NCBI GenBank assembly: GCA_964594155.1
Contig: CAZQLH010000002.1
Location: 44,324 to 108,323, forward strand
DNA: 64,000 bases
Reading direction: 5' to 3'
Source of the DNA: an uncultured Candidatus Saccharibacteria bacterium
GTDB taxonomy: Bacteria > Patescibacteriota > Minisyncoccia > Portnoybacterales > UBA2143
Shown: positions 1,703 to 51,109 of the stretch, one piece after another
Numbering within the stretch: the first letter of the stretch is position 1
How the letters are laid out: each line of letters begins with the position of its first letter
Position numbers and translations under genes: made by a program
Notes under the pieces: generated by a model
What the model was told of the DNA's origin: nothing
The model's input: the letters and a program-made list of their open reading frames with translations, nothing else
Database searches by the model: none

Positions 1703-2377
1703 TTAGTCAATGAATTTGAAACTTTGAACCATGTTATTAAAAACATCAAAATTACAACGATCTTTAATATGATCGCGACACCTGATTACATATAAATTAT
1801 CAGACTTATTTGCAGTAATAATATTATCAACATGCCAATATTCTTTATTATCTATTTTCCATTTATGCTCTATTTTATAATAAGTTGCTTTTTCATTTCC
1901 TAATAACATCCATGATTCTGTTTTTGTATTTGGAGCGTTTATTTGCATAATTCCATTAATATATTCGTCATCATTCATATCTTCAATAAAAAATATATCA
2001 ATTGAATATGTATCTTCTGATGTTTTGTCTTGCGGAAGAAAAGCAAAAGAATGATATTTAGGATTTATATCATCTTTTTTTGTAAATTTCCATGTTTCTG
2101 GATACCTCACCTCAAATTCATACTCTTCATTTCTATAGGTCTGCCAAAGAATTGTTTTGTCAGTTATCTGTTGTTGATTAACTTGTTGTTGGTTGTTTGG
2201 TTGTTCTTCTGGTTCAGAATAATAATATTGATAAGTAATATAACCTCCTGCGCCAACAACAACTATAATTAAAACTGCGATTAAAATAATATCCCAGGCA
2301 GGCAAATGAAATTTTTTTGGAATGTTTGGCTGTTGTGATTGATTTTCTAATTGATCCATATATTTATATTTTATCAT
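1703..2377 (-). CDS. Hypothetical single-pass membrane protein with a Q/N-rich linker
   Basis: ORF of 224 aa with an N-terminal TM helix (ILIAVLIIVVVGAGGYI) and no recognisable domain. Confidence 0.45.
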   Translation of the reverse strand: MIKYKYMDQLENQSQQPNIPKKFHLPAWDIILIAVLIIVVVGAGGYITYQYYYSEPEEQPNNQQQVNQQQITDKTILWQTYRNEEYEFEVRYPETWKFTKKDDINPKYHSFAFLPQDKTSEDTYSIDIFFIEDMNDDEYINGIMQINAPNTKTESWMLLGNEKATYYKIEHKWKIDNKEYWHVDNIITANKSDNLYVIRCRDHIKDRCNFDVFNNMVQSFKFID

Positions 2378-2472: not shown

Positions 2473-2557
2473 GGAAGAGTCGGATAACGGTATTCCAGCA
2501 GCTTGCTAAGCTGTCGCCCTTTTGGGCTTGCGGGTTCGAATCCCGCCTCTTCCGCCA
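2473..2557 (+). tRNA. tRNA-Ser (anticodon GCT)
   Basis: Cloverleaf read by eye: acceptor GGAAGAG/CTCTTCC, 3-bp D stem, anticodon loop TTGCTAA, long variable arm, GTTCGAAT T-loop and encoded CCA. Confidence 0.85.
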
Positions 2558-2558
2558 G

Positions 2559-2999
2559 ATGACTATTCAAAATACAATAAATAAAGTATTGCCTATTTTT
2601 AACTCTTATCCAGAAATAAAACTGGTTTATTTTTTTGGTTCAAAAATAACAAATAAAACAGGGTCATTGAGCGATTATGACTTTGCTGTCTATTTAGATA
2701 AAAAAAATAAAAAAAAGCTATTTGAAATTAAAATAAAATTATTAAATCAAATAAGCGATGTTTTAAAAACTGATAAAGTTGATATTGTTATTCTAAACAC
2801 AGTTGAACAACCAGAATTAAAATACAATATAATCAAACAAGGAAAATTAATTCTTGAAAAAGAACCTTTTAAAATTTTAATTGAACCAAAAATCCTAAAT
2901 GAATATTTTGATTTTCGAACTCTACTTTTAAAATATAATTTAACAAAACCTATATATGGAGAGGTTAGATTACGCAGCGAATCTCTCTTTCTTTATTAA
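2559..2999 (+). CDS. Nucleotidyltransferase-domain protein (MNT-like minimal nucleotidyltransferase)
   Basis: FFGS...GSLSDYDFAVYLD matches the GS-x(9-13)-DxD nucleotidyltransferase signature. The start abuts the tRNA. Confidence 0.6.
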   Translation: MTIQNTINKVLPIFNSYPEIKLVYFFGSKITNKTGSLSDYDFAVYLDKKNKKKLFEIKIKLLNQISDVLKTDKVDIVILNTVEQPELKYNIIKQGKLILEKEPFKILIEPKILNEYFDFRTLLLKYNLTKPIYGEVRLRSESLFLY

Positions 3000-3036
3000 T
3001 TTTCATATTAAAACTTTTTTAATTTATAATAAAAAA

Positions 3037-3921
3037 ATGTCTAGCCTAATAATTAAGAATAATAAAATTATTTGTGCCATCCCGCTTACAGGCGCTACAA
3101 GCAAAATCAGAGTAAAAAAACGTATTAATAATTTTGGAAACCCAGTTTCAGTAAAAAAGAATCCTTTTACTGATGATTTTTATATTGAATGGCAGATATC
3201 TTATTTTCTTCCTTTTGATAAAATTTGGGATAATTATAGAAAGGCAAAAAATAAAAAAGTAAGACTAAAAATTATTAATGATCTTTCTTTAAATTATAAA
3301 AACAAGAATGTTGTTTCTGCTTTAAAAAATTTTATACAAAATAATAAGATAAATAGCAAAAAAGAGTTTAAAAATAAATTAGAAAATATCTTTAAAAAAC
3401 ATAATGAAACAATAATAAAAAAAGAACATAAAAACGATAATATTTATGTTCGTTATGAGTTAGCTGATATGTTCAAATTTGCTCTAGAAAATAATTTAAT
3501 AAACAAAAAAGAAATTAAGAGTTTAATAGGTTTTAATCAAGATAAAACTCTTGATATTGAAAAGCAATATAAAATTATCAGAACATCTGTTAATAAAAAG
3601 ATTTATAATAAATTTGAGTATTATGAAGAAAAGACACCATTATTTATAAATAAAATAAATGAAAATAATTTTGTAGAGATTATCTTAGAACATAAACAAC
3701 GTGCTGTTGGATATCAAAGTATGATTTATTTTTGCTCTTATATTAAAAATTTATTTGATGATAAAGAACAGTCGATTATTGGCAGAACAGCTAAATCTAA
3801 TGAGATTATATACCTACCCATAGGAAAAGAAGATCTAGTTAATATTGCTGAAAGTTTTATGGTTGCCTCTCAAGATCATCTTTGGGATATGAAAAAAATA
3901 TTAAATGATATTATTAAATAA
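3037..3921 (+). CDS. Hypothetical protein (294 aa) and a candidate unrecognised nuclease/defense component
   Basis: ORF with an ATG at 3037 in frame with the track ORF. No motif recognised. It is convergent and tail-overlapping with the gamma-class MTase. Confidence 0.45.
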   Translation: MSSLIIKNNKIICAIPLTGATSKIRVKKRINNFGNPVSVKKNPFTDDFYIEWQISYFLPFDKIWDNYRKAKNKKVRLKIINDLSLNYKNKNVVSALKNFIQNNKINSKKEFKNKLENIFKKHNETIIKKEHKNDNIYVRYELADMFKFALENNLINKKEIKSLIGFNQDKTLDIEKQYKIIRTSVNKKIYNKFEYYEEKTPLFINKINENNFVEIILEHKQRAVGYQSMIYFCSYIKNLFDDKEQSIIGRTAKSNEIIYLPIGKEDLVNIAESFMVASQDHLWDMKKILNDIIK

Positions 3922-5044
3922 TAACTTTAAAGTTATAAATATCCTCTTTTTTAATTGATTTACTGCCTACTCGGCAAGTGATATTTCTAAAATAATCAAT
4001 TCTTTCGTTAATTTGTTTACAGATAATTTCTTTTATCTGTTTATTTTTTTTATATTGATCTTGGACATCAAAAACGTAAAACATATCATTTAGAATATCT
4101 TCCCTTGCATTAACTAAACCACATTTTCCTACGCTTGCATTTCCCACTCGAACTACTGCAATTTTATAATCCTCAATTGTTTTGCCTAATGGAATTTTGT
4201 TTTTTGCAAGAATATTTTTAGCTGAAATATTGTTTTCTTTGTATGATTTTTGGACTTTTATGTTTTTACTTTCAAAATATTTATTTAACGGAACGCCTTT
4301 ATCATTTTCAACATATCCATTATTTTTATGAAAAATTACTTGTGGAATTAATTCTTCATTAAATTTATCTATATTAAATACTTCCTCATTCTTAATGCTG
4401 TTTTCGTATATTATAATTATTTTATCTTTTAATTTTTCGATATTAGCAAATATAGCAAAGCAACAAGGTATATTTCTATCAAACCAAATTTTATCATTTT
4501 GATAAACAATAATTGATGAAAAATATTTTAAAATTTCAATTTTAATATTTTTATTTTTATTTTTTATGAAGAAAGAAATAGGCAAAACAAAACCAATGGA
4601 AGAATTTTCATTTTTTAAATGCTTTAATGATTTTAATATAAAAGCATTTTCAATTTTTTCTTTTTCTTTTTTCATTTCTATCTTTGTTAAATAATCAATT
4701 AGCGAGACTTCTGATTTTAAATAATTTTTTGGAAAAAAATAACTTTCTTTTAGATTATACTTGCTAAACGGAGGGTTGCCCACAATAAAATCATATTTAT
4801 TTTGGACTGATAGATTAAAAAAATCAGATGGTTTTTTTGTTAATTCTGGGTCTATTTCACAATCATTAGTATTTTTAAATCCTTTTTCTTTTAAAACTCT
4901 AACAAAATTACCTGTTCCAGATGAAGGTTCTAATATTTTTATATTTTCATTGTATTTTTTATAACTAAATAATAAATCTAATAGTTTTTTAACTATTTCG
5001 ATTTTCGTAAAATATTGACCTAAAATTTCTTGTTTATTTATCAT
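3914..5044 (-). CDS. N6-adenine DNA methyltransferase, gamma-class (M.TaqI-like)
   Basis: GQYFT, ILEPSSGTGNF (motif I) preceding VGNPPFSKY (motif IV NPPF), with a C-terminal TRD-like region. Confidence 0.8.
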   Translation of the reverse strand: MINKQEILGQYFTKIEIVKKLLDLLFSYKKYNENIKILEPSSGTGNFVRVLKEKGFKNTNDCEIDPELTKKPSDFFNLSVQNKYDFIVGNPPFSKYNLKESYFFPKNYLKSEVSLIDYLTKIEMKKEKEKIENAFILKSLKHLKNENSSIGFVLPISFFIKNKNKNIKIEILKYFSSIIVYQNDKIWFDRNIPCCFAIFANIEKLKDKIIIIYENSIKNEEVFNIDKFNEELIPQVIFHKNNGYVENDKGVPLNKYFESKNIKVQKSYKENNISAKNILAKNKIPLGKTIEDYKIAVVRVGNASVGKCGLVNAREDILNDMFYVFDVQDQYKKNKQIKEIICKQINERIDYFRNITCRVGSKSIKKEDIYNFKVII

Positions 5045-5046
5045 AA

Positions 5047-5685
5047 TTAAAACTTTTTTAGTCTGTTAATAGCTAACTCACAATATTTTGGATCAATTTC
5101 AAATCCTATATAATTTCTTTTTAATTGTTTGCAAGCAACTGCCGTGCTCCCGCTTCCGATAAAGGGATCTAAAATAACATCATTTTCTTTTGAAAACATC
5201 ATCAAAATTTCTTTGATAAAAGTTTTAGGCTTAGGTGTGGGGTGATTGATAAAGCCTTCATCTGGCTCTACCATTTTTCCTGGAGTATCTATAAAAATAT
5301 CTTTACCTCTCTTAGTCATTTTTGGATTGCCCTTTTTAAACACCATACAAGACATATATTTTGTAAATCCTATTGGCGATATTACTCTTCCATTGGGACA
5401 GAATAAAACGAAGTTCCAAAAATATTGAAATGGATTATTTTTAAAAATATCTGGCAAAAATTTTGTACTGAAAAAAGTTATTAAAAATGCATCATTTTTC
5501 AAAACTTTATAACTTTCAGGCAATATTGAATAAAATAAATTTAAATTATGATCATTTTTGATGCCCGTTTTATTTAAACCATAAGGAGGATCTGTAAAAA
5601 TTAAATCAATAGAATTATCTGGCAAGGATTTTAATCCCTCAAGGCAGTCTATATTCTGAATTGTATTAACCCAATTTTTTGCCAT
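5047..5685 (-). CDS. DNA methyltransferase, beta-class (N4-cytosine or N6-adenine; PF01555-like)
   Basis: DLIFTDPPYGL (motif IV) precedes ILDPFIGSGSTAVAC (motif I), which is the beta-class motif order. Confidence 0.8.
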   Translation of the reverse strand: MAKNWVNTIQNIDCLEGLKSLPDNSIDLIFTDPPYGLNKTGIKNDHNLNLFYSILPESYKVLKNDAFLITFFSTKFLPDIFKNNPFQYFWNFVLFCPNGRVISPIGFTKYMSCMVFKKGNPKMTKRGKDIFIDTPGKMVEPDEGFINHPTPKPKTFIKEILMMFSKENDVILDPFIGSGSTAVACKQLKRNYIGFEIDPKYCELAINRLKKF

Positions 5686-5890
5686 GTTTTTTAGTTTTTA
5701 AGATTTTTATTAAATCTTCACCCTTAAATCTCCTCAGACCATTAAATTTAATTGAAGGTATTTTATTCTCGGCAATATATCTTTTAATAGTGACTGGCGA
5801 AACCTTTAAAATTTCAGCCACTTCTTCAGTAGTATAAATTTGATTTTTATCCACAGTCATAGTAATATTGAAAGTATCAATTAGTATCAT
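5666..5890 (-). CDS. Excisionase/MerR-type HTH DNA-binding protein (possible controller)
   Basis: 74 aa. EEVAEILKVSPVTIKRYIAENKIPSIKFNGLRRF resembles an HTH_17 excisionase-family domain. It overlaps the MTase by 20 nt, suggesting an operon. Confidence 0.6.
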   Translation of the reverse strand: MILIDTFNITMTVDKNQIYTTEEVAEILKVSPVTIKRYIAENKIPSIKFNGLRRFKGEDLIKILKTKKHGKKLG

Positions 5891-5943
5891 ATTTAGTATA
5901 ACATATCTTATGTCAAAAGGGAAAAGAAAAACTGATTTTAAAT

Positions 5944-6447
5944 ATGGATAAAGAAATACAACAACTAATCCAGATTACAAACAAAACCTTTGGTTCTGAA
6001 AAACAAGCGTATGCTTATTTAAAAAACTTGGTTTCAAGATATAACAAGAAACTATTTAATAACATCTTGCCGCCAGTTCAAATAAGTATAGTTCCAAAAA
6101 TAGAACCTATCTATAATTTTGGAGGTGCGCAATATAAATCGTGGCATCGTATACCTCAGATTTTTTTACATGTAGAAGCAATAAACTCAAAAGAAAAAGT
6201 CAATATTATAGTAGTACATGAATTGATACATCACTGGGAATATAATGTTAAAACAGATAAGGATTCTGCTATATATCCACAAAAGATAGATGACCTAATA
6301 AAATCTTCTTATTCTAACAAACAGGAAAGAATATGGCGCGCAGGCCACTCAAAACATTTTATTGCAAAAAGTTACGAAATCTCTTCTAATCTTAATGTAG
6401 ATATTGGCCAGCTACTTTCTGGTCAAATGAAAAGAAAAAATAATTAA
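5944..6447 (+). CDS. SprT-like HExxH zinc-metallopeptidase domain protein
   Basis: VVHELIHHWEY resembles the SprT-like HExxH(W) motif. It is divergent from the HTH gene. Confidence 0.45.
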   Translation: MDKEIQQLIQITNKTFGSEKQAYAYLKNLVSRYNKKLFNNILPPVQISIVPKIEPIYNFGGAQYKSWHRIPQIFLHVEAINSKEKVNIIVVHELIHHWEYNVKTDKDSAIYPQKIDDLIKSSYSNKQERIWRAGHSKHFIAKSYEISSNLNVDIGQLLSGQMKRKNN

Positions 6448-6595
6448 TAGACCTTAATTTAAAACTTAGGAATTTCAAACCAGCTCGGATTTTTTCTGTA
6501 TAATTTGCATAATTCGCAGATTTTTGGTTTAATATAAGGTAACAGAAAGTTCTAACTTTTGGAAATCCACACCGCCAGTAAAAATATAAAATAAT

Positions 6596-6685
6596 GGAGA
6601 GGTGCCGGAGTCTGGTTGAACGGGATAGTCTTGAAAACTATTGTTGTCTTTGACAACCGTGGGTTCGAATCCCACCCTCTCCGCC
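6596..6685 (+). tRNA. tRNA-Ser (anticodon TGA)
   Basis: Acceptor GGAGAGG/CCTCTCC, anticodon stem ATAGT/ACTAT with loop CTTGAAA, long variable arm and GTTCGAAT. Confidence 0.85.
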
Positions 6686-7240: not shown

Positions 7241-7314
7241 GTCCTCGTAGCTCAGTTGGATAGAGCGCTTCCTTGCGGAGGAAGAGGCCGCAGGTTCGAA
7301 TCCTGCCGAGGATG
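7241..7314 (+). tRNA. tRNA-Arg (anticodon GCG)
   Basis: Acceptor GTCCTCG/CGAGGAT (G1-U72), D stem GCTC/GAGC, anticodon stem CTTCC/GGAAG with loop TTGCGGA, and GTTCGAAT. Confidence 0.7.
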
Positions 7315-7315
7315 C

Positions 7316-9346
7316 ATGTTGTCTTTAAATACTAAAATTAAAAATATTAAAAAAGTAGGTCCTGCTTATTTGAAAAAGCTTCATAAGCTTAACATCAAAA
7401 ACATCCAGGACCTATTTTTTCATTTCCCCCATAGATATGATGATTTTAGCAAGACAGTTTTAATTAGCAATCTTAAACAAGGACAAATAGCAACTATTCA
7501 AGCAAAAGTTAATGAAATAAAGAACACTCGGATTCCTTATAAAAAAATGGTTTTAACTGAAGCTTTGGTTAAAGATAAAAGCGGCACCATTAAAATTGTC
7601 TGGTTTAACCAGCCATATTTAATTGATACTCTTAAAAAAGGCAAAACAGCTAATTTTTCCGGCAAATTGACTTTTTCTAAAAAAACTCTTTGTCTTTCTA
7701 ATCCGGTTTACGAGATTGCTAATAGAAAAAAAGATGCAACTCATACCGGCAGATTAGTTCCAGTATATCACGAAACAGCCGGCTTATCTTCCCGCTATCT
7801 CCGTTATTTAATCAAACCCTTATTATTCCTAACTGATAAAATAACTGACTTTCTGCCTGAACAAATTAAGAAAGAATTCAACCTGTTTAACCTTAATCAA
7901 GCTATCAAGCAAATTCATTTTCCAGACAACGCTGTTTCAGCTCAAAAGGCTCGCCAGCGATTGGCTTTTGATGAGTTTTTTTTAATCCAATTAAGCGCGC
8001 TTAAACAAAAACAAAAACTAGCTCAAGAAAAAGCGCCTGATATTCCTTTTGATCAAAAACTAATTAAAGCTTTTGTCAAAAGCCTGCCTTTTAAATTAAC
8101 TAATGATCAAAGAATAACTGCCTGGGAAATTCTTCAAGACATTAATCAGGATAAACCCATGAATCGATTGCTTAATGGCGATGTTGGATCAGGCAAAACC
8201 ATTGTTGCCATTATATCTGCCCTGGAAACTGCTAAAACCGGGTATCAAGCTGCTTTAATGGCGCCAACTGAAATACTGGCTAAGCAGCATTTTGAAACTT
8301 TTAAGAAATTCCTTAAAAAATCTAATTTAAAAATCGCCTTATTAACCAGCTCTGAAGTTAGATTAACTAAAAAAACAACCCGGGCCAAATTAAAAAAGCA
8401 AATCTCTGACGGAAAAATAGACATTATTATAGGCACTCATTCATTAATTCAGGAAGATTTATCTTTTAATAATTTAGCCTTGGCTATTATTGATGAACAA
8501 CATCGTTTTGGCGTTGCTCAACGAGCTGCTTTGCAAAGAAAGATTTATCAAATAAAAGACGGATTGTCAACAATACCGCATCTGCTTTCAATGACAGCCA
8601 CTCCTATTCCCAGAACTTTGGCTTTAACTCTTTATGGCGACTTGGATATTTCTTTAATTAAAAAAATGCCCCGAGGCAGAAAAAAAATAATCACTAAAAT
8701 CATTACTCCGGATGACCGGCAAAAAACCTATGATTTTATCAAAAACCAGATTAAACAAAAAAAACAGGTCTTTGTTATTTGCCCGCTAATTGATGAATCG
8801 GATAAATTAGCGGTCAAATCTGTAACTCAAGAATACAAAAAGCTTTCTCAAGAAATATTTCCTCAATTAAGAATCAACATGCTTCATGGCAAGCTTAAAC
8901 CAAAAGAAAAAGAAAACATTATGAAAGATTTCCAAAAAAGAAAAACAGATATTTTGATTTCTACTTCAGTGGTTGAAGTCGGCGTTGATATTCCCAATGC
9001 CACAGTAATGATGATTGAAGGAGCTGACCGATTTGGCTTGGCTCAGCTTCATCAATTCCGAGGCAGAATTGGCCGAAGCAGCGATCAATCCTATTGTTTT
9101 CTTTTTGCTGATTCTCCAGCGAAAAAAACAAATCAGCGGCTCAAAGCCATTGTTATTAACCAAGACGGCTTTGAATTAGCTGAAAAAGATTTAAAAATCA
9201 GAGGAGCTGGCGATTTCTTGGGAACCCGCCAATGGGGATTTCCTGATTTAATTATGGCTTCTTTAAATGATATTGATTTAATCAAACAAGCTCGTCAGGC
9301 AGCCAGCATTGTTTTAGAAAAAAACTTAATTAATCAAAATCTTTAG
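7316..9346 (+). CDS. recG: ATP-dependent DNA helicase RecG
   Basis: N-terminal LFFHFPHRYDD wedge motif, helicase motifs GDVGSGKT and DEQHRFG, and a C-terminal QLHQFRGRIGR. Confidence 0.85.
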   Translation: MLSLNTKIKNIKKVGPAYLKKLHKLNIKNIQDLFFHFPHRYDDFSKTVLISNLKQGQIATIQAKVNEIKNTRIPYKKMVLTEALVKDKSGTIKIVWFNQPYLIDTLKKGKTANFSGKLTFSKKTLCLSNPVYEIANRKKDATHTGRLVPVYHETAGLSSRYLRYLIKPLLFLTDKITDFLPEQIKKEFNLFNLNQAIKQIHFPDNAVSAQKARQRLAFDEFFLIQLSALKQKQKLAQEKAPDIPFDQKLIKAFVKSLPFKLTNDQRITAWEILQDINQDKPMNRLLNGDVGSGKTIVAIISALETAKTGYQAALMAPTEILAKQHFETFKKFLKKSNLKIALLTSSEVRLTKKTTRAKLKKQISDGKIDIIIGTHSLIQEDLSFNNLALAIIDEQHRFGVAQRAALQRKIYQIKDGLSTIPHLLSMTATPIPRTLALTLYGDLDISLIKKMPRGRKKIITKIITPDDRQKTYDFIKNQIKQKKQVFVICPLIDESDKLAVKSVTQEYKKLSQEIFPQLRINMLHGKLKPKEKENIMKDFQKRKTDILISTSVVEVGVDIPNATVMMIEGADRFGLAQLHQFRGRIGRSSDQSYCFLFADSPAKKTNQRLKAIVINQDGFELAEKDLKIRGAGDFLGTRQWGFPDLIMASLNDIDLIKQARQAASIVLEKNLINQNL

Positions 9347-9349
9347 AAT

Positions 9350-9454
9350 AAGGTCCGACCTTAAAATGCCTAACCTTACCCAACGATAATTATAGATATT
9401 TGCTAATTAAAAGAGATTTAGATGGAAAGGTTAGGCATTTTAAGGTCGGACCTT
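9350..9454. repeat. Perfect 28-bp inverted repeat (arms 9350-9377 and 9427-9454, 49-nt spacer), each arm containing AAGGTCCGACCTT
   Basis: aaggtccgaccttaaaatgcctaacctt pairs with aaggttaggcattttaaggtcggacctt, seen directly in the sequence. Confidence 0.7.
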
Positions 9455-35920: not shown

Positions 35921-36772
35921 ATGAAAAAACAAAAAATTGGTTTTATAGGCCAAGGATGGATCGGCAAAAACTACGCTGATAATTTCAAGAATAGAGGTTA
36001 TCAGGTTGTAAGGTATGCCAAAGAGCCAAAGTATGTAAAGAATAAGAATAAAATTAAGGATTGCGATATTGTTTTCGTAGCTGTGCCTACTCCAACTTGC
36101 GAAAACAAATTTGACGTCTCTATCCTAGAACAAGCATTATCTGTGGTCGGAGAAAGTAAAATAGCAATTATTAAATCTACTGTAATCCCAGGTACTACAA
36201 AAAAACTACAAAAGAAATATCCTAAAAAGATAATTCTGCATTCTCCTGAATTCTTAACTGAAGCTACTGCCCGCTATGACGCTGATCATCCTAAAAGAAA
36301 CATTATTGGATATGTTAATGAAAAAGGCAGAATAGCAGCTAACAAAGTAATGAAGGTTTTGCCAGAAGCTCCTTACAAATCAATTTTGCCAGTCAAAACA
36401 GCTGAATTAGTAAAATATGCTGGAAATTGCTGGTTTTATCTCAAAGTTATTTATATCAATCTTATCTATGACTTAGCTGAAAAAATGGATGTTGACTACG
36501 AAACAGTAAAGGAAGCTATAAGCTATGATCCAAGAATAGGTTTTACTCATTTGGATCCTATTCATAAATCAGGCAGAGGCGCAGGCGGTAATTGCTTTAT
36601 TAAAGATTTCGCTGCTTTTGCCCAAATGTACAAAAAACTAAATCCAAAAGATAAAAAAGGAAATAACTTTCTTAAAAAAGCTCAAGAAAAAAACATAGAA
36701 TTATTGCTTCAGTCTAAAAAAGATTTAGAATTACTGAAAGGAGTTTACGGAAAAGACGTTATGAAGAAATAA
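35921..36772 (+). CDS. Nucleotide-sugar dehydrogenase-like protein (UDP-glucose/GDP-mannose dehydrogenase N-terminal and central domains; C-terminal domain absent)
   Basis: IGFIGQGWIG Rossmann motif, VFVAVPTP, IIKSTVIPGTT and the catalytic-Cys motif GAGGNCFIKD. It is only 283 aa. Confidence 0.55.
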   Translation: MKKQKIGFIGQGWIGKNYADNFKNRGYQVVRYAKEPKYVKNKNKIKDCDIVFVAVPTPTCENKFDVSILEQALSVVGESKIAIIKSTVIPGTTKKLQKKYPKKIILHSPEFLTEATARYDADHPKRNIIGYVNEKGRIAANKVMKVLPEAPYKSILPVKTAELVKYAGNCWFYLKVIYINLIYDLAEKMDVDYETVKEAISYDPRIGFTHLDPIHKSGRGAGGNCFIKDFAAFAQMYKKLNPKDKKGNNFLKKAQEKNIELLLQSKKDLELLKGVYGKDVMKK

Positions 36773-36889
36773 AAATAGCATGGAAAACTAAAAACCGCTT
36801 GTTTAGGCGTTTTTTAGTACTTGCTTTTTACCTAAAATCCTGTTACTTTGTAACTAGCCTGTCATAGGTGGACGTTGTCCGCCAGAGGC

Positions 36890-36937
36890 GGACGCTAAAT
36901 TTATTATCAAAATTAAAATTTTGAATAAATTTGCGGG
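36890..36937 (+). promoter_or_regulatory. Conserved 48-nt tRNA-upstream element, copy 2
   Basis: Identical to 35251-35298 and preceded by the hairpin gtccgcc-aga-ggcggac. Confidence 0.5.
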
Positions 36938-37009
36938 CCAGTAGCTCAGTGGTAGAGCATCTGTTTTGCAATCAGAAGGTCAAGGGTTCAATTCCCTTCT
37001 GGTCCACCA
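36935..37009 (+). tRNA. tRNA-Ala (anticodon TGC)
   Basis: Acceptor GGGCCAG/CTGGTCC with the G3-U70 identity pair, anticodon loop TTTGCAA and an encoded CCA. Confidence 0.75.
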
Positions 37010-37014
37010 TAAAT

Positions 37015-37740
37015 ATGCTTAAAATTGTTTTTGAAAATCAAGATATCCTTATTATCAACAAGCCAGCCGGATTAACAGTTCATCCAATTAAACCAGAACA
37101 AGATAATACATTAGTTAATCAATTGCTCGCCTATTATCCAGAAATTAAAAATGTTGGAGACCCTTCAACAAGTTCAGGGCAAGTAAATTTACGGCCAGGC
37201 ATTGTTCATCGCTTAGACAAAGATACTTCTGGATTAATGATGATAGCGAAGAATAATAAGGCGTTTGAATACTTAAAAAATTTATTTAAAAATAAAAAAA
37301 TTGTTAAAAAATATTTAGCTTTAGTTCATGGAAAAGTAAAAGATAAAAAAGGAACTATTGCCAAATCAATCAGCTTATCTAAAAAAGACCATCTTAAAAG
37401 AAGCGCCTTATTAGATGAAAAATCAAAACCAGCTTGGACAGAATATCAGGTTAAAAAATATTTTGATAATTACACTCTTTTAAAAGTTTATCCTAAAACA
37501 GGCCGAACCCATCAAATTAGAATTCACTTAGCTTCAATTGGGCATCCAATTACTGGAGACAAACAATACAAATTTAAAAGGCAAATTAATCCAAAAAATC
37601 TAAACAGGCAATTTCTTCATGCTTCTTACTTGAAATTCAAACTTCCTAATGGTAAGATGGCAGAATTCAAATCAAAGCTTCCTCAAGATTTAGAGGAAGT
37701 TTTACAAGGTATTAACCATTATGAGCAACAAACTAGATAA
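37015..37740 (+). CDS. RluA-family pseudouridine synthase
   Basis: [14 protein letters not shown] and the catalytic [10 protein letters not shown] motif. Confidence 0.8.
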
Positions 37741-38089
37741 ATTTAATAAAAAGCAATTAAAAAAAGACCTTCCTGATATTAGAACTGGTTATACAGTCAA
37801 AGTTCATCAAAAGATTAAAGAAGGCGACAAGCAAAGAATCCAGGTCTTTGAAGGCTTAGTTATTGCTAAAAAACACGGTAATGGAATTAACGCTACTATT
37901 ACTGTTCGGAGAGTAAGCCAAGGATTTGGCGTAGAAAGAATATTTCCTATTCATGCTCCATTTATTGAAAAAATAGAAGTGGTTAAAAAACACAAAGTTA
38001 GAAGAGCTAAACTTTATTATATTAGAGATAAATCAGCTAAAGAATCTAGACTTAAAGAAATCAAGGAACCAAATAAAAAGAAGAAGTAG
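37721..38089 (+). CDS. rplS: 50S ribosomal protein L19
   Basis: [46 protein letters not shown] matches the L19 family. Confidence 0.85.
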
Positions 38090-38097
38090 CCAAAATA

Positions 38098-38181
38098 GCC
38101 CAGGTGGTGGAACGGTTTACACAACAGGTTGAGGGCCTGTGCTCCTCGTGAGCGTGCGGGTTCGAATCCCGCCCTGGGCAC
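38098..38181 (+). tRNA. tRNA-Leu (anticodon GAG)
   Basis: Acceptor GCCCAGG/CCTGGGC, anticodon stem ACAGG/CCTGT with loop TTGAGGG, a long variable arm and GTTCGAAT. Confidence 0.8.
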
Positions 38182-38231
38182 AAAATAAAATCGCCAATCT
38201 TTTGGCGTTTTTATTATCCCCCAAACACTCA

Positions 38232-39428
38232 TCATCTGCTAAACCTTATTTCCCCCTTTTCAAGCAGATTAAAAACAATACTGACTAAAGCAGCTAAGGC
38301 AAAAACCCATTGAATAGCAAAAGACAATGAAACAATAATAATTAAAACAGCCATTATTAACCTGCCAGACTGAAGCGCCATTTCCCTTAAAACAGTAAAT
38401 TCATCAACATAATGCCCTTGATCTGCAGCTATTTCATAAGTCAAAGCGTCAAAAGGCGTTCGCAGTAAAATATCAGTTACGCTATGATAAGCTCCAGCAA
38501 TAAAAATCTGAAAAGCGGTTGAAACAAAGATTTTAATTACCCATCCTGAAGAATAAAGCAAGGTTCCCCATTTCAAAGCTTTTTTCTTAGAAATTTTCAC
38601 ATCAATTAACTTCCCTATAACCAACTGCAAACTAACTGTAAAGCCAATGATTAAAGTAGAAATAGCTCCTACTTGAAAATAGTTTCCCTTTAAAACTTGA
38701 AAGATGAAAATTGGCCAAACAACCAAACCAACCATATTTTCTGCTCCGTCAGCCATATACACTAAAACCATTTTTCTTCTTTCTTTTGAAAAAAATTCCT
38801 GCCAGGTTTTTTTTAAGCTCCAGCTAAACTTTTCCTTGGTTCGCGGAAGAGTTAAATAAGGAATGCCAGATACTAGCCAAAGAATAATTGCAATTACAAA
38901 AAGAACATCAAAGCCAAAGCGAACGATAATAAAGCCGGAGATTATTGGAATAAATACTCCTAATATCATGCGAGTGGCGCTTAACATGCTAACCTGCCTG
39001 GCCCGAGTTTTCTTATTAGTAAATTTAGCAAAATCAACGTGAAAAGGAAGCCAATGGAATAAGCGGAAAAAAACAAGAGTAAAAATAGAAAGAGGAATTA
39101 AATAAACTAAATTATCTTTATTTATAAAATAAAAGATTGTATAAAAAAGAGCTGCTAAAATAACACTGACTTGTAATGCCCTTCTAAAACCAAATTTATT
39201 TAAAAATCTTGATCCAAAAGAAATAGTTATTCCAAAAAGAGAAAATCCTGCTGCATAATATATAACTACTGCCTGAAAATTCTGATTAAAAAGATTATAT
39301 AAAAAAATTGGGAGGAATAATCCCAAAAGAGCTGCCGAAATTAATGAAATTGTCCTACCAGTGTATAAAGAGACAAAACCGCGAGACAATGGAATATCAA
39401 AATATTTTCTTTCAAGTTTTTCTAACAT
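38232..39428 (-). CDS. MFS-type transporter
   Basis: 398 aa with roughly 12 hydrophobic segments. Confidence 0.55.
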   Translation of the reverse strand: MLEKLERKYFDIPLSRGFVSLYTGRTISLISAALLGLFLPIFLYNLFNQNFQAVVIYYAAGFSLFGITISFGSRFLNKFGFRRALQVSVILAALFYTIFYFINKDNLVYLIPLSIFTLVFFRLFHWLPFHVDFAKFTNKKTRARQVSMLSATRMILGVFIPIISGFIIVRFGFDVLFVIAIILWLVSGIPYLTLPRTKEKFSWSLKKTWQEFFSKERRKMVLVYMADGAENMVGLVVWPIFIFQVLKGNYFQVGAISTLIIGFTVSLQLVIGKLIDVKISKKKALKWGTLLYSSGWVIKIFVSTAFQIFIAGAYHSVTDILLRTPFDALTYEIAADQGHYVDEFTVLREMALQSGRLIMAVLIIIVSLSFAIQWVFALAALVSIVFNLLEKGEIRFSR

Positions 39429-39492
39429 AGATACATTGTATCATAGATCTGGATTTTTTTGAAAGTTTCTGTTAAAATACTTCAGTAATAAG

Positions 39493-39568
39493 GGCGGTTA
39501 ACTCAGCTGGCTAGAGTGTCTCGTTTACACCGAGGAAGTCGCAGGTTCGAGTCCTGCACCGCCCACCA
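39493..39568 (+). tRNA. tRNA-Val (anticodon TAC)
   Basis: Acceptor GGGCGGT/ACCGCCC, D stem ACTC/GAGT, loop TTTACAC, GTTCGAGT and an encoded CCA. Confidence 0.8.
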
Positions 39569-39570
39569 AT

Positions 39571-39608
39571 AAACAAACCCATCTATAATAGATGGATTTG
39601 TTTATTTT
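39571..39608. terminator. Long hairpin terminator (bidirectional position)
   Basis: aaacaaacccatctat-aat-agatggatttgttt followed by atttt. Confidence 0.55.
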
Positions 39609-39629
39609 AGAACAAGTTTTTAAAAAAAG

Positions 39630-40796
39630 TTAACGGATACTTTTATAACCCATTTGTGAATCTATTTTAGAAAACACTATCTGCCATAAATAATTCTTAT
39701 GCGCTCTAAAAGCTCCTGCACAAGCTAAAAGATAATAATTCCACATCCTCTTAAATCGTTCATCATAATGAAATTTGATTTTATTCCAGTTTTTATTAAA
39801 ATTCTCATGCCAAGCCATTAAAGTTTTATCATAATCTGTTCCAAAATTATGCCAATCTTTAAGCTTGAATATATTTTTATATGCCTTAGTGATTTGACTT
39901 ATTGAAGGATTCATTCCATTTGGAAATATATATTTATCAATCCAAGGGTCTACGCGATTAACTGACTTATTTTTTCCAATGGTATGTAATAGGAATAGAC
40001 CATCATCTTTTAAGCATTTGTTAACAACTTTGAAGAATTTCCTGTAATTTTTATAACCAACATGCTCAAACATGCCTACTGAAACAACACGATCAAACTT
40101 TCCCTTAAGATCCCTGTAATCCAGTAACTTTATTTCAACATCAAGGCCCTGACAAAATTCCTTGGCTAATCTTACTTGTTCTTTAGAAATGGTAATGCCT
40201 ACTACTTTAGCTTGATATTCCTCTGCGGCAAATTTTGCCAGACTTCCCCAACCACAGCCAATATCTAAAAGAGTCATGCCTGGTTTTAACTTTAATTTTT
40301 TGCAAATCAGATCTAATTTAGCCTCTTGGGCTTGATCTAAAGTTTTTGCATTCTTCCAATAACCACAACTATAATTCATTCTTTTATCAAGTATATTCTT
40401 ATAAAAATCATTACCTATATCATAATGCCATTCTCCAATTTTGTACGCTTCTGACTTTTTTTGCTGATTTATTACTTTGGTTTTAATAATATTCCAAATA
40501 AAACGCTTTAAGTTTTTAATTTTCTCATCCAATCTTGCTCTAATAGATCTGTCAATTAACTGATCAAGCGCTTTGCATTCCCACCATCCATCCATATATG
40601 ATTCTCCTAAAGCAAGCGATCCTCCAGCTAAAACCCTTGAATAAAAACCTTGGTTATTTACTTGAATATCCCAGGGTCTTTTCCCATTGATCTTAATATC
40701 TGCTTGATTAAGAAAATCTTGCATTGTTTGTTTTGTGTTTTTCATTTTCATATTAATAATTACTGATATCGTATATAAAAAATTGACCAGAGTCAA
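39630..40796 (-). CDS. cfa: Cyclopropane-fatty-acyl-phospholipid synthase
   Basis: MTLLDIGCGWGSLAKFAAE SAM motif within a CFA-synthase-like sequence. Confidence 0.8.
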   Translation of the reverse strand: MTLVNFLYTISVIINMKMKNTKQTMQDFLNQADIKINGKRPWDIQVNNQGFYSRVLAGGSLALGESYMDGWWECKALDQLIDRSIRARLDEKIKNLKRFIWNIIKTKVINQQKKSEAYKIGEWHYDIGNDFYKNILDKRMNYSCGYWKNAKTLDQAQEAKLDLICKKLKLKPGMTLLDIGCGWGSLAKFAAEEYQAKVVGITISKEQVRLAKEFCQGLDVEIKLLDYRDLKGKFDRVVSVGMFEHVGYKNYRKFFKVVNKCLKDDGLFLLHTIGKNKSVNRVDPWIDKYIFPNGMNPSISQITKAYKNIFKLKDWHNFGTDYDKTLMAWHENFNKNWNKIKFHYDERFKRMWNYYLLACAGAFRAHKNYLWQIVFSKIDSQMGYKSIR

Positions 40797-40822
40797 TAAA
40801 AATGGTAATTTAAGCAGTATAG

Positions 40823-40908
40823 GGAGAGGTTCGAGAGTGGTTTAATCGGACGGTTTCGAAAACCGTTGTTGTTTTTGACAACCGTGGGTTCGAATCCCAC
40901 CCTCTCCG
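40823..40908 (+). tRNA. tRNA-Ser (anticodon CGA)
   Basis: Acceptor GGAGAGG/CCTCTCC, anticodon stem ACGGT/ACCGT with loop TTCGAAA and a long variable arm. Its 3' half is nearly identical to tRNA-Ser(TGA) at 6596. Confidence 0.8.
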
Positions 40909-40909
40909 C

Positions 40910-41461
40910 ATGAGTAAAAAAACAAACAAAAATATTGAAGTTGAAACTAGAGACTTTATTTCTAAATCTCAATATTATTCCTTAATAAAATTTTTAAAAA
41001 ACAAAGGAAAGTTTTTAGGACAAGATAAACAAATCACCTACTATTTCTCTGGCAAAAATGATTTAAGAATACAAAAGAATAATAAATTTGCTAAGCTTTG
41101 GTTAAAAATAGGTTGTAATATTTATGACGATCACCGAGAAGAAATAGAAATCAAATTTGATAGAAATGATTTTGACAGATTAGAAGAACTGCTTATTAAG
41201 CTTGGATATAAAGTAGAAATAAAGTGGTTTCGGACCAGAAATCGCTTTCAATGGAAAGGAACTAAAGTAACTGTAGATTCTACTAAAGGTTATGACTATA
41301 TTATTGAATTAGAAAGAATTTCAGATAAAAAGAATAAAGAAAAAGTTTATCAAAAATTACTCCAACAACTTAACCAACTTAAAGTAGAATTAACGCCTAA
41401 AAAAGAATTTGAAAGGAAGTATAAGTATTATAAAAAGAATTGGCCAAGGCTAATTAAATAA
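40910..41461 (+). CDS. CYTH-like domain protein (class IV adenylate cyclase/triphosphatase fold), tentative
   Basis: N-terminal IEVETRDFI resembles an ExExK-like start; 183 aa. Confidence 0.35.
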   Translation: MSKKTNKNIEVETRDFISKSQYYSLIKFLKNKGKFLGQDKQITYYFSGKNDLRIQKNNKFAKLWLKIGCNIYDDHREEIEIKFDRNDFDRLEELLIKLGYKVEIKWFRTRNRFQWKGTKVTVDSTKGYDYIIELERISDKKNKEKVYQKLLQQLNQLKVELTPKKEFERKYKYYKKNWPRLIK

Positions 41462-41466
41462 TCATT

Positions 41467-41958
41467 ATGACTAATTTTTTAATCAACAATCAAATTACAT
41501 TCCTCTTTATAGCAACCATAGTTGTTTTAATCATTTGGAATATTACTCTTTCGTATAATCTCTGGCAAATCAGAAAAAAACTTAAAACATTTTTTAATGG
41601 AAAAAAAGCTTCTGATTTAGAAGGAGTTCTTTTTGAAGAAATCAGAAGATTAAAAAAAGCAGAAGATAGTATTAAAAAATTATTAGAATTTTCAAAAGAA
41701 TTAGAAAAAACAACTAAAAAAAGCGTTCAAAAAGTCAGTGTTATTAGATTTAATCCTTTTAAAGAAACTGGCGGCGATCAAAGCTTTGTTATTGCCCTGC
41801 TTGATAGTCAAGATAATGGACTCGTTATTTCCAGCTTATACACCCGCGAAGGAACCAGAATCTACAGCAAACCAATTGAAAATGGCCAATCAAAATACCC
41901 TTTGTCTAAAGAAGAATTAGAGGCCTTAAAAAAAGCAGGGATCAAAGCTGAAAAATAA
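41467..41958 (+). CDS. Hypothetical membrane-anchored protein
   Basis: 163-aa ORF with an N-terminal TM helix. Confidence 0.45.
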   Translation: MTNFLINNQITFLFIATIVVLIIWNITLSYNLWQIRKKLKTFFNGKKASDLEGVLFEEIRRLKKAEDSIKKLLEFSKELEKTTKKSVQKVSVIRFNPFKETGGDQSFVIALLDSQDNGLVISSLYTREGTRIYSKPIENGQSKYPLSKEELEALKKAGIKAEK

Positions 41959-41983
41959 TCTTATATAATTACATATCGCATAT

Positions 41984-42010
41984 AAAAAAACCGGCTATCA
42001 TAAGCCGGTT
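41984..42010. terminator. Hairpin terminator (T-tract on the minus strand)
   Basis: aaaaaaaccggctatcataagccggtt. Confidence 0.5.
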
Positions 42011-42196
42011 AAATTATTTCACTTAACGTTTACGTGTATCTGATGTTTCTTGCCGGATTCATCAGTATTTGCGTACATTTTAGCACATTCGTCGACTGTT
42101 TGAATAAGCTTTGGTTGTACGCTATTCGGAGGCAAGAAATATGGGCGGAGCAAAAGGACATTCCATTAATTTACATTTGAGTCCTTTTTGTGTAGC

Positions 42197-42239
42197 CAGA
42201 TATGCGTTGTTATACTTGCTGTTTTTTGGAGGCAAATTC
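42197..42239. repeat. Intergenic element IG1: cagatatgcg...ttttttggaggcaaattc. The 18-mer at 42222-42239 is the exact reverse complement of 43163-43180.
   Basis: Direct sequence comparison. Confidence 0.7.
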
Positions 42240-42291
42240 CCACCCAAACGTCATAAAAATTTTCTGATTTTACACATAGACCTCTTAGCAA

Positions 42292-43116
42292 TTATTTTTT
42301 AGCTGATATCAAGTAATGTTTTCTAGGGTAATAATCATCGTTTCCGATTGCTCTGCTATTATACTCCTTTTCTAGTTTTTCGATCTCTTGTATTAGTCCA
42401 TTCTGTAAATCCGAATTGTTTAAATTTTTGATTCTTCCTTTCGCCCATTCTAAACGTTGCCTAAATTCAATATCTATTTCCTCTTTACTTTCAAAAAATT
42501 GAGTATCATTAATTTGTAGCCCTGAATTTTTTATCAATGGAATGATCCAATCTGACGGATACTCAAAAGTTCTGATAGTTGGAAGAAAGAGAGTCAACGA
42601 TTTCGCGATCATCATATACAAATTTACTATCTCCGTCAGATCTCTAGGATTTCTTTTAGAAAGTTCAGGATCACCCTCAATTTTATCCATAGAAATATAA
42701 TCGAATTTAGGCTCATATCCCCAATAAGCTTCTCTGTCTATAAATATGACTTCACCACCTTTTTTCAAAAATTTAAACAATGCCTTGAAAGTATCGGAAA
42801 GCCTTGAAGGAGTAATCTCTCCAATAAGATAATCAGCTAAAATTAAGTCAAAAGTTGAATCACTAAAGGTAGAACTTTTTGAAATATCACCATATTTTAA
42901 AGTGTAGTTTTCATAACTCTTGTTGATTAGCTCTTGATTTGCTTGTTCACCCTTCCTTAGATCTCCTTCATATGCGAGCAATGTCAAATGCTCTGGATTC
43001 CTTTGAGCGAGAAACCATGCACTAGTTCTACCTGTTCCAGCGTCTAAAACAGATTTACCATCAAGAGATTTTCCTTTAAAATAGTTTTCTATATATTGAA
43101 ACTTTTGACTGATCAT
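42292..43116 (-). CDS. Class I SAM-dependent methyltransferase
   Basis: VLDAGTGRTSAW motif I; 274 aa. Confidence 0.65.
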   Translation of the reverse strand: MISQKFQYIENYFKGKSLDGKSVLDAGTGRTSAWFLAQRNPEHLTLLAYEGDLRKGEQANQELINKSYENYTLKYGDISKSSTFSDSTFDLILADYLIGEITPSRLSDTFKALFKFLKKGGEVIFIDREAYWGYEPKFDYISMDKIEGDPELSKRNPRDLTEIVNLYMMIAKSLTLFLPTIRTFEYPSDWIIPLIKNSGLQINDTQFFESKEEIDIEFRQRLEWAKGRIKNLNNSDLQNGLIQEIEKLEKEYNSRAIGNDDYYPRKHYLISAKK

Positions 43117-43162
43117 AATTTTAAAAATAGTTGCTAAGAAAACTTTTCCACCATACCTTCAT

Positions 43163-43269
43163 GAATTTGCCTCCAAAAAATGGCGTATAACGTTTCTGGA
43201 TATGCGATGTTGCGATAGCAATATGGGTGAAGCGAAGCGGAACCGCATATCCAGTGTTATGTGATGTAG
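43163..43269. repeat. Intergenic element IG2: 18-mer gaatttgcctccaaaaaa, a hairpin with arms ggatatgcg/cgcatatcc (loop containing gcgatagc and gcggaac), then gtgttatgtgatgtag
   Basis: Seen in the sequence. It is homologous to the elements at 45729-45830 and 44813-44866. Confidence 0.7.
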
Positions 43270-43320
43270 TGAAAAACATTCCTTAGTTATTTATAATTTT
43301 TAGTAATTTACATCCTTGTT

Positions 43321-44748: not shown

Positions 44749-44812
44749 AATTAAAGAGTAAATTACTGAAAATTATTTTAAAAAGAGTTTTTCACTATTT
44801 CACATAATGTTT

Positions 44813-44866
44813 GCGGCTATGCGTCTGTACTTGTATGACGTATAGCCGCTGTTAGCTGATGTAATT
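44813..44866. repeat. Intergenic element IG3: 13-bp hairpin gcggctatgcgtc/gacgtatagccgc followed by tgttagctgatgtaatt
   Basis: Seen in the sequence; related to IG2 and IG4. Confidence 0.6.
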
Positions 44867-44870
44867 AAAT

Positions 44871-45695: not shown

Positions 45696-45728
45696 TGAAT
45701 TGAATTTAATTATTTCAGCTAACGTTCC

Positions 45729-45830
45729 GGCATATCTGAAGTTTTTTGTGGAGCGATAGCGGAACAAAAAATTTGGGAGAGCATTTTTCGGAGAAAAGTG
45801 CGAACCAGATATGCCGTGTTATGTGATGTA
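45729..45830. repeat. Intergenic element IG4: hairpin arms ggcatatctg/cagatatgcc (loop containing gcgatagc and ggaac), then gtgttatgtgatgta
   Basis: Seen in the sequence; homologous to IG2. Confidence 0.7.
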
Positions 45831-45899
45831 CCTGTTTTCCTTCAATCCGTCTTAGCGGATTGCTCTTAAAAAGAAAGAAATGGATTTGATTTTTTCCCG

Positions 45900-45948
45900 T
45901 TTGGGCGAGGGGCAAGAGGGGCTGGGGGTGAATTGCCCCTCGCCCAAA
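45900..45948. repeat. Perfect 16-bp GC-rich hairpin tttgggcgaggggcaa / ttgcccctcgcccaaa immediately 3' of the 635-aa ORF
   Basis: Seen in the sequence. Confidence 0.65.
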
Positions 45949-45955
45949 CACCTTA

Positions 45956-47863: not shown

Positions 47864-48169
47864 AATTTTGAAGTTTAATCTGTTAATTATAGCTTAGATT
47901 AAGGCTAATATCAATCAAAAAACGTTTTCGTAGCGACCAGCGGGAGCGGAGAAAACACCTTATTCCCCCCTCTATAAAAAATAAAAAATCAAATCCATTT
48001 TCTTTTAAAAGCTTGGGCAATAGCCCAAAAAGGAAAACATGTATTTCACATAACTCGTTTATATACAATCTTTTTATATATAATTATTATTATTTGTATA
48101 TTATATACAATTTATGATATAATCTACAAATAATAACTTCATTAATATTTTAACAAAATACATTTATTT

Positions 48170-48985: not shown

Positions 48986-48987
48986 GT

Positions 48988-50544: not shown

Positions 50545-50551
50545 AAAATAA

Positions 50552-50890: not shown

Positions 50891-50924
50891 AATTATTAAG
50901 AAATGTGGTAGAATAGGGAAATAA

Positions 50925-51103: not shown

Positions 51104-51109
51104 AAAAAT

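Follow-up and report, generated by a model that had tools for sequence, protein, structure and literature searches.

The 64-kb stretch of DNA analyzed here (64,000 nucleotides, nt; hereafter the window) comes from a member of the Patescibacteria, as judged from a scan of genome collections with the RecG protein encoded next to the locus. Between two tRNA-Ser genes it carries an AT-rich islet (GC 0.18-0.28, against 0.30-0.38 in the flanks), the core of which is very probably a complete Type II restriction-modification (R-M) cassette of the PabI family. The cassette comprises a restriction gene (R), two DNA methyltransferases (MTases, or M in gene orders) of different classes and a small helix-turn-helix protein, HTH_17. 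The features of the locus, with protein lengths in amino acids (aa) and the evidence in brackets, are as follows.

2473-2557, plus strand: tRNA-Ser(GCT), left border of the insertion (ARAGORN; Rfam RF00005, 54.7 bits)
2559-2999, plus strand: MntA-like nucleotidyltransferase, 146 aa (Pfam Polbeta, 1.9e-20; NCBIfam MntA_antitoxin, 74.4 bits, cut-off 60)
3037-3921, plus strand: R gene, long form of the PabI family, 294 aa (PF09522, PADLOC, PDB, AlphaFold2/Foldseek)
3205-3453, plus strand: domain inserted in R at residues about 57-139 (gap at query residues 58-138 when R is aligned with R.PabI by phmmer)
3914-5044, minus strand: gamma-class N6-adenine DNA MTase, 376 aa (M.PabI homologue by BLASTP; PADLOC MTase_II, 4.5e-19)
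5047-5685, minus strand: beta-class (DPPY) DNA MTase, 212 aa (PF01555, N6_N4_Mtase, 8e-32)
5666-5890, minus strand: HTH_17 (excisionase/MerR-type) protein, 74 aa (PF12728, 1.5e-13; TIGR01764)
5891-5943, no strand: divergent intergenic region, expected from the gene arrangement to hold the promoter and operator of the methylase operon
5944-6447, plus strand: weakly SprT-like small HExxH zincin, 167 aa (PF10263, 22.5 bits, cut-off 25.6)
6596-6685, plus strand: tRNA-Ser(TGA), right border of the insertion (ARAGORN; Rfam, 57.5 bits)
about 3022-5916, no strand: conserved four-gene R-M cassette, R, gamma MTase, beta MTase and HTH_17 (DNA-level homology to metagenomic cassettes)
994-1641: ComF-like gene, outside the islet
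7241-7315: tRNA-Arg(gcg) (ARAGORN, Rfam)

The open reading frame (ORF) of R and the gamma MTase gene are convergent and overlap by 8 nt (3914-3921). The genes for HTH_17, the beta MTase and the gamma MTase form one minus-strand operon in which they overlap or abut, the HTH_17 gene running 20 nt into the start of the beta MTase gene. An initial annotation of this locus, made from the letters alone, had described the two same-strand tRNA-Ser genes, on which ARAGORN and Rfam agree, together with six ORFs between them, the 8-nt overlap and the overlapping three-gene operon, and all of these are where it placed them. Its assignment of the two MTases to the gamma and beta classes likewise agrees with the order and content of their motifs and with the Pfam and PADLOC matches.

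The same annotation counted two unknown proteins and no recognizable nuclease in the islet. The 294-aa protein, however, is readily recognizable, and because it belongs to the known PabI family the puzzle of the missing nuclease is solved. It matches the Pfam family PF09522 (RE_R_Pab1) at 52.5 bits with a cut-off of 25 and the PADLOC restriction endonuclease (REase) model REase_II PDLC03538 at 5e-34, and a phmmer search against PDB sequences returned R.PabI (2DVY, 1.8e-32) and R.CcoLI (2.9e-18). An AlphaFold2 model built from an alignment of 67 homologues has a pLDDT of 92.1 and a pTM of 0.90, and when it was compared with the PDB by Foldseek, only R.PabI and R.CcoLI chains were significant (E<=1e-3; best E 5e-17, target TM 0.74-0.87), all other matches having E > 0.2. 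The fold of the modeled protein is therefore the HALFPIPE of the PabI family, and not the PD-(D/E)xK, HNH or GIY fold for which the initial annotation had proposed to look.

To our knowledge, PabI-type enzymes are the only restriction enzymes that act as DNA glycosylases. The characterized HALFPIPE members are glycosylases rather than phosphodiesterases, and the catalytic residues of R.PabI are Y68, H211 and D214 (PMC7229829); these align with Y56, H281 and D284 of the window protein, which are invariant in the 67 sequences. Ten residues have been listed with which R.CcoLI and R.PabI read the bases of their site (PMC7806768). We mapped this list onto the window protein through the R.PabI numbering and found all ten equivalents present: K23, R25, E51, Q53 and Y231, reading G; Q227 and M229, reading T; I54 and F274, reading A; and Q221, reading C. 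R25, E51, I54, Q221, Q227, M229 and F274 are invariant among the homologues, and K23, Q53 and Y231 are at least 90% conserved. From these residues we predict that the enzyme is an adenine glycosylase specific for unmethylated GTAC, and we consider it likely that GTAC is the target of the cassette as a whole.

We placed the start of R at 3037 rather than at 2956, because both the homologous proteins and the DNA-level homology begin at 3037; the start at 2956 (321 aa, the ENA call for P0001) was rejected. So delimited, the gene is full length, its 294 aa comparing with 288-297 aa in the long-form homologues. A sigma-70-like -35/-10 pair (TTCATA-17-TATAAT, 3002-3030) lies just upstream as a consensus match only; general scans for promoters and terminators performed at background level (34 promoter-like sites versus 30.8 expected) and were not used as evidence. 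The R family comprises 106 clusters at E<=1e-3. The about 100 related clusters include Patescibacteria as well as metagenome-assembled genomes (MAGs) labeled by NCBI as Nanoarchaeota, Aenigmarchaeota, Elusimicrobia, Ignavibacteria and Rickettsiales, and the NCBI pipeline already names such proteins 'R.Pab1 family restriction endonuclease'. We found no homologues in phage genomes, and in plasmids only the known Campylobacter two-gene systems.

The phmmer match to R.PabI falls into two pieces (query residues 3-57 and 139-293), and the roughly 80 residues between them, which begin directly after the catalytic Tyr56, are modeled by AlphaFold2 as four helices (60-69, 73-82, 90-102 and 108-121) and a beta-hairpin (126-129 and 135-139) with block-mean pLDDT values of 85-96. 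The long form bearing this insertion is common to about 50 clusters (288-297 aa), one of them from an NCBI-annotated Nanoarchaeota MAG; shorter versions of R also exist, a mid form of ~250 aa and a short form of ~220 aa. In R.CcoLI and R.HpyAXII, a beta-sheet of ~20 aa at the matching site positions Lys71 and confers apurinic/apyrimidinic (AP) lyase activity (PMC7806768). Since the residue of the window protein aligned with Lys71 of R.CcoLI is a Tyr, its AP-lyase competence is not readable from the sequence; the insertion domain probably modulates the AP-lyase step or the handling of DNA.

To see the cassette in other genomes, we scanned metagenome contigs with the alignment of R and then searched the fetched loci (numbered L001, L002 and so on) by tblastn with the islet proteins. 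Of these loci, 47 were informative, that is, they had a full-length R and a flank of at least 2.6 kb. A gamma MTase is present in 44/47 and convergent with R in 44/47, a beta MTase is present in 43/47, and both are found in 40/47. With a long R, the recurring order is C(HTH_3) > R > < gammaM < betaM < HTH_17, where C is a controller protein, and with the mid form it is betaM > R > M.PabI-type MTase (464-aa class), while the classical arrangement of just two genes is seen in Pyrococcus abyssi (L010) and on a Campylobacter plasmid (L171). At the DNA level (blastn), about 3034-5906 of the window is 74-76% identical to L092-L120 and others; this homology starts 3-15 nt before the start codon of R and ends 16-26 nt past that of HTH_17. 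Some loci carry a single MTase: R is accompanied within 6-8 kb by a LexA-fused beta MTase as the sole MTase in L001-L003, L117 and L118, and by a gamma MTase alone in L131 and L139. Most relatives have the C-protein gene, but the window gave no tblastn match to the C protein of L004 or of L008, and the MntA-like gene stands in its place.

When we started instead from relatives of the beta MTase, the betaM-gammaM pair was constant and the gene facing it was variable, which makes the pair look like a fixed unit whose restriction partners can be exchanged. Its partner in L172 and L173 is a divergent PabI-like protein of 215 aa; it faces a 200-aa PDLC03460-type REase together with a C protein, with no R.PabI, in L176 (6001-8610) and L177; and both a 252-aa R.PabI and a 207-aa PDLC03460-type REase, again with a C protein, in an Ignavibacteria MAG (L178:6001-9373; GCA_017303675.1). 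Neither PDB nor Pfam nor NCBIfam yielded a match to the 200-aa REase of L176. In L173, a 239-aa ORF with a LAGLIDADG_3 domain (8643-9362) lies beside the divergent PabI-type cassette and tRNA-Asp and tRNA-Met genes, which makes this another tRNA-adjacent place for the MTase pair.

The gamma MTase contains motif I (LEPSSGTGNF, residues 38-47) followed by NPPF (90-93), is TaqI-like in the PDB, and has relatives that carry PF07669 (Eco57I). M.PabI of P. abyssi (L010:5379-6773; 464 aa, N6_Mtase/Eco57I) aligns with its residues 3-329 (327 residues) at 23% identity (BLASTP, E 9e-16). By this homology it is the cognate, M.PabI-type enzyme of the cassette, with N6-methyladenine in the GTAC site (GTm6AC) as its expected product.

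The beta MTase has its DPPY motif at residues 32-35 and FIGSGST at about residue 175, and its matches in the PDB are an N4C MTase, CcrM, M1.HpyAVI and MboIIA. It is the most conserved part of the cassette, with mean identities of 80, 68 and 69% in groups whose R proteins are 66, 50 and 32% identical, respectively, and its family comprises 519 clusters at E<=1e-40; its plasmid relatives (Burkholderia and others) are at most 36% identical and uninformative on specificity. In nearly all loci the beta and gamma genes are translationally coupled or abutting within one operon. HTH_17 keeps its position at the head of this operon in most of the cassettes with an R identity of 60% or more, and also in L172 and L173, two loci without a called recombinase gene in the part that was fetched; it is a probable regulator of the methylase operon. 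A direct repeat, TTAGTAT (5881-5887 and 5893-5899), straddles the HTH_17 start codon and is a candidate operator for autoregulation of the operon. In L001 (8872-10194) and also in L093, L117 and L118, the beta MTase is part of a 440-aa fusion protein that begins with LexA_DNA_bind and Peptidase_S24 domains, so that a LexA-like and possibly self-cleaving regulator is joined to a DNA MTase beside a restriction glycosylase.

The islet is an insertion between tRNA-Ser genes that are normally adjacent, as the corresponding region of relatives indicates. In the closest one (L011, RecG 72% identical) the order is ComF > tRNA-Ser(gct) > 87 bp > tRNA-Ser(tga) > p154 > tRNA-Arg > RecG; in L012 the spacer between the two tRNA-Ser genes is 4 bp, the two genes are also adjacent in L013, L016 and L024, and no islet genes were found at any of the RecG-neighbor loci L011-L040. 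The 87-bp spacer of L011 (9176-9262) repeats 24 nt from the 5' part of tRNA-Ser(tga) with a single mismatch, and this looks like a scar left there by a former insertion or excision. The cassette itself recurs in this neighborhood in several more distant Patescibacteria: it lies between tRNA-Ser(tga) and tRNA-Ser(gct) in L112, and it adjoins ComF, p154, tRNA-Arg or RecG in L095, L096, L098, L103 and L111. Because R in L103 and L111 is more similar to that of the window (66-68% identical) than the flanking RecG is (45-52%, partial alignments), repeated horizontal arrival at a preferred site is favored over vertical inheritance.

A candidate for the vehicle is a large serine recombinase of 517-573 aa, which adjoins the cassette in other Patescibacteria, namely in L004 (5604-7127), L105 (97-1650) and L106 (18-1739), and whose 3' end overlaps ~30 nt of tRNA-Ser(tga) or tRNA-Ser(gct) in these three loci; homologues stand beside the cassette also in L099, L104, L113 and L169. 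In the recombinase-bearing loci the cassette is flanked on either side by a repeat of ~130 nt, the translation of which resembles residues 466-509 of the recombinase as well as the spurious ORFs 'p159/p194'; the repeat may mark the ends of the element. The orientation of the window cassette to tRNA-Ser(gct) is that of L106. However, neither the recombinase, its flanking repeat or remnants of them, nor a remnant of the C gene was found in the window, which probably harbors a decayed and immobilized derivative, a fixed remnant of such an element. Since the window holds no attachment (att) repeats or recombinase remnants, the route of insertion can be proposed from the relatives only.

The window contains 26 GTAC sites, where 60.3 +/- 6.9 are expected from dinucleotide-preserving shuffles, and the observed/expected ratio (O/E) of GTAC under a maximal-order Markov model, 0.53, is the lowest of the 136 strand-collapsed 4-mers. 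Avoidance of the recognition site has been reported for Helicobacter (PMC10273834), and the depletion seen here fits such avoidance, though we take it as only supportive. In relatives the O/E of GTAC ranges from 0.44 to 1.19.

We propose that the cassette works as follows. The HTH_17 > beta MTase > gamma MTase operon would methylate the GTAC sites of the host, the gamma MTase making GTm6AC and the beta MTase most likely protecting the same site. The 294-aa protein would act like R.PabI, excising adenine at unmethylated GTAC without a metal, and the two opposed abasic sites would then be turned by AP-lyase or AP-endonuclease action into a double-strand break that is hard to repair. The cassette would be mobile cargo, related copies moving with a large serine recombinase whose integration sites are tRNA-Ser genes, and the window copy would have lost both the recombinase and the C-protein gene.

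Several observations weigh against this interpretation. CTAG is almost as depleted in the window as GTAC (O/E 0.57). The depletion of GTAC is also uneven, in that the region from 36 to 55 kb is not depleted (20 observed versus 22.8 expected, O/E 0.88), while the other 45 kb has 6 sites where 27.6 are expected (O/E 0.22), and several relatives lacking the cassette at this locus have O/E values of 0.44-0.7. Most close cassettes have a C gene ahead of R; the window has none, which makes the expression of R uncertain, and in Helicobacter the inactivation of PabI-family R genes is frequent (PMC10273834). A search of the islet borders for direct or inverted repeats that might be att sites yielded nothing beyond the T-arms that the two tRNA-Ser genes share by homology. 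Lastly, the MTase pair also occurs with a PDLC03460-family REase (L176, L178), so that the beta MTase could serve another enzyme or site.

The last point bears on the role of the beta MTase. Since either MTase alone can accompany R, each seems able to protect the host by itself, which argues that both modify GTAC, and we lean slightly toward both protecting the same site. Alternatively, the beta MTase and HTH_17 might be a separate, non-cognate module, with another target or as the partner of a lost PDLC03460-type enzyme, in which case the islet would consist of one complete R-M system and one solitary MTase. The single pair that faces two REases in L178 and the pairs that face only the PDLC03460 type in L176 and L177 would suit such a module, as would the larger number of beta MTase clusters (519 versus 106 for R), although the thresholds behind these two counts are not directly comparable. 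Yet long-form R does occur with the LexA-fused beta MTase as its sole MTase in the five loci named above, the two MTase genes are joined in one operon nearly everywhere, and the mean identity of the beta MTase stays at 68-80% among cassettes in which every R protein retains the GTAC-reading residues. We thus regard a separate module as rather unlikely.

Another alternative retains GTAC for both MTases but divides their labor as in DpnII, with the gamma MTase maintaining double-stranded GTAC and the beta MTase acting on single-stranded or hemimethylated DNA, either to shield DNA taken up by competence or to limit self-nicking by the glycosylase at hemimethylated sites. The DpnII system sets a precedent, as it has two MTases of different classes for one palindrome, of which the beta-class DpnA acts on single-stranded DNA in transformation (PMC3573125). 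Moreover, when DNA is hemimethylated, R.PabI and R.CcoLI cut the strand that lacks the methyl group (PMC10273834), and the host is a Patescibacterium with a ComF-like gene near the islet. That either MTase alone can accompany R may also be fitted to this idea. However, it is purely an analogy, none of the sequence features considered here tells a single-strand MTase from a double-strand one, and the PDB entries nearest to the beta MTase are ordinary double-stranded DNA enzymes, so that we consider such a division unlikely for this cassette.

It might also be argued that R is silent or dead and that the locus is a pair of orphan GTAC methylases, epigenetic or protective, left by a decayed mobile element. 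The absence of the C gene found upstream of R in cassettes with R at least 60% identical, where the homology to the window begins only just before R, points in this direction, as does the absence of the recombinase, and in Helicobacter the PabI-family R is often mutated or replaced while M is kept (PMC4615327, PMC10273834). On the other hand, the R ORF of the window is full length with every invariant catalytic and recognition residue, it has the sigma-70-like consensus match just upstream, and no 4-mer has a lower O/E than GTAC, in keeping with restriction pressure that is ongoing or recent. A dead R therefore seems quite improbable to us.

Lastly, a methylation-associated defense other than R-M (MADS-like or other), consisting of the HTH protein, two MTases and unknown effectors, is hardly credible, because although HTH_17 weakly matches PADLOC mad1 (7e-9) and NCBIfam MAD1, its 27 bits on the latter are far under the cut-off of 80, other MADS components are absent from the matches in the window, the effector is a PabI-family enzyme, and the architecture of the cassette is that of Type II R-M. 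The initial annotation had left the choice between such a methylation-coupled defense and an R-M system with the 294-aa ORF as its restriction component; the PabI-family identity of that ORF decides for the latter. Its suggestion that the tRNA flanks mark accessory DNA is supported by the empty tRNA-Ser/tRNA-Ser sites of the relatives, and nothing found here points to a housekeeping homologue of the 294-aa protein with the MTases as conserved orphans at this locus.

Among known systems, the cassette is close in kind to the PabI system of P. abyssi (R.PabI/M.PabI; PDB 2DVY, 3WAZ), with which it shares the R family and fold, the catalytic triad, the GTAC-reading residues and a homologous gamma-class, Eco57I/TaqI-like N6-methyladenine MTase, and which is likewise a mobile low-GC insertion (PMC10273834). 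It differs in that R is ~70 aa longer owing to the four-helix and hairpin insertion after the catalytic Tyr, a beta-class MTase and HTH_17 are added, the gamma MTase is of a 376-aa rather than the 464-aa type, and the host is a mesophilic Patescibacterium instead of a hyperthermophilic archaeon. The mesophilic glycosylases R.CcoLI and R.HpyAXII (Campylobacter and Helicobacter; PDB 7CFA) also belong to the PabI family, and their insertion follows the catalytic Tyr at the identical position; however, it is a beta-sheet of ~20 aa with Lys71, in contrast to the mostly helical ~80 aa with a Tyr at the Lys71 position in the window, and these systems, which are mobile and found also on plasmids, have one Eco57I-type MTase (L171), not two.

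The cassette resembles DpnII/MboI-type systems in having a single R and two MTases that differ in class, with a small beta-class enzyme as one of the pair (PMC3573125), but differs from them in restriction enzyme family, chemistry and site (GATC); the likeness is one of layout. C-protein-controlled Type II R-M systems are represented by the close relatives, which have an HTH_3 controller immediately upstream of R and convergent M genes, whereas the window copy has no C gene and an MntA-like gene at that position. With tRNA-targeting serine-recombinase elements, the link again runs through the relatives, in which the recombinase abutting a tRNA gene is present beside the cassette, unlike in the window.

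According to a 2023 review, the PabI family occurs in Helicobacteraceae, Campylobacteraceae and a few hyperthermophilic archaea, always beside one MTase (PMC10273834), and our literature search found no paper linking PabI to Patescibacteria. The about 100 related clusters detected here indicate a reservoir of PabI-type enzymes much wider than that range. The cassette departs from all characterized members in four ways: R has the large inserted domain, HTH_17 and a second MTase are present, the gamma MTase is of the 376-aa type, and the host belongs to another lineage. A long-form R with its extra domain at the site that tunes AP-lyase activity, two cognate-looking MTases and carriage on serine-recombinase elements that target tRNA-Ser genes together make up a conserved architecture of which the literature searched contains no description. 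The cutting of hemimethylated self DNA by PabI-type enzymes may, by analogy, provide a rationale for the second MTase, and if the second MTase does have a separate role, this would bear on how a restriction enzyme that damages hemimethylated self DNA is tolerated. The long-form enzymes are also candidate mesophilic, metal-independent GTAC glycosylases.

A broader generalization is possible, though we put it forward tentatively and would not call it probable. Outside cultured Campylobacterales and hyperthermophilic archaea, PabI-type restriction might as a rule need three or four components, among them two MTases that differ in class, and the whole unit might move between Patescibacteria and DPANN archaea on elements whose serine recombinase targets tRNA-Ser genes. 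In such systems the small conserved beta MTase might have a distinct and necessary job, for example protecting single-stranded or hemimethylated GTAC, and the glycosylase might often have a large helical domain beside its active site.

The remaining two genes of the islet were not found beside the cassette in any of 170 other loci (L001-L170, tblastn with the MntA-like and SprT-like proteins), and because they never accompany other cassettes, we regard them as co-resident cargo, not as components of the R-M system. The MntA-like gene starts 2 nt after tRNA-Ser(GCT) and is solitary, the next gene being R, with no HEPN/HepT ORF adjoining. Thus the MntA model of the MntA/HepT type VII toxin-antitoxin systems is matched in the window while its HepT partner is missing.

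The SprT-like protein belongs to a small family, of which an exhaustive HMMER search of 1.84 billion proteins found about 50 representatives at 50% clustering, all about 160-180 aa long; a word-indexed homologue search with this protein returned nothing. H92, H96, W98, E99 and H135 are invariant in the family, and E93 is at least 90% conserved. Eight of 22 relatives match PF10263 (best 8e-8), although the window protein itself is below the cut-off, and the only PDB match of the family profile is the minigluzincin MJ1213 at E of about 0.4.

Next to the islet, a PsbP_2-like gene of 224 aa (1703-2377, minus strand) lies between ComF and tRNA-Ser(gct) in the window but not at the matching position in L011, where ComF directly precedes the tRNA gene; this is a second local difference beside the islet. 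The region of the window that is not depleted in GTAC (36001-55000) contains many tRNA genes and those for ProRS, IF-2, HtrA, CMAS and an MFS transporter, as well as a 635-aa protein without a Pfam match (45956-47863, minus strand) and a tyrosine integrase/Xer-type gene (48170-48985, plus strand). Nine of its 20 GTAC sites fall in 44-48 kb, and the uneven density of the site possibly stems from recent acquisition of this region or from a mosaic assembly.

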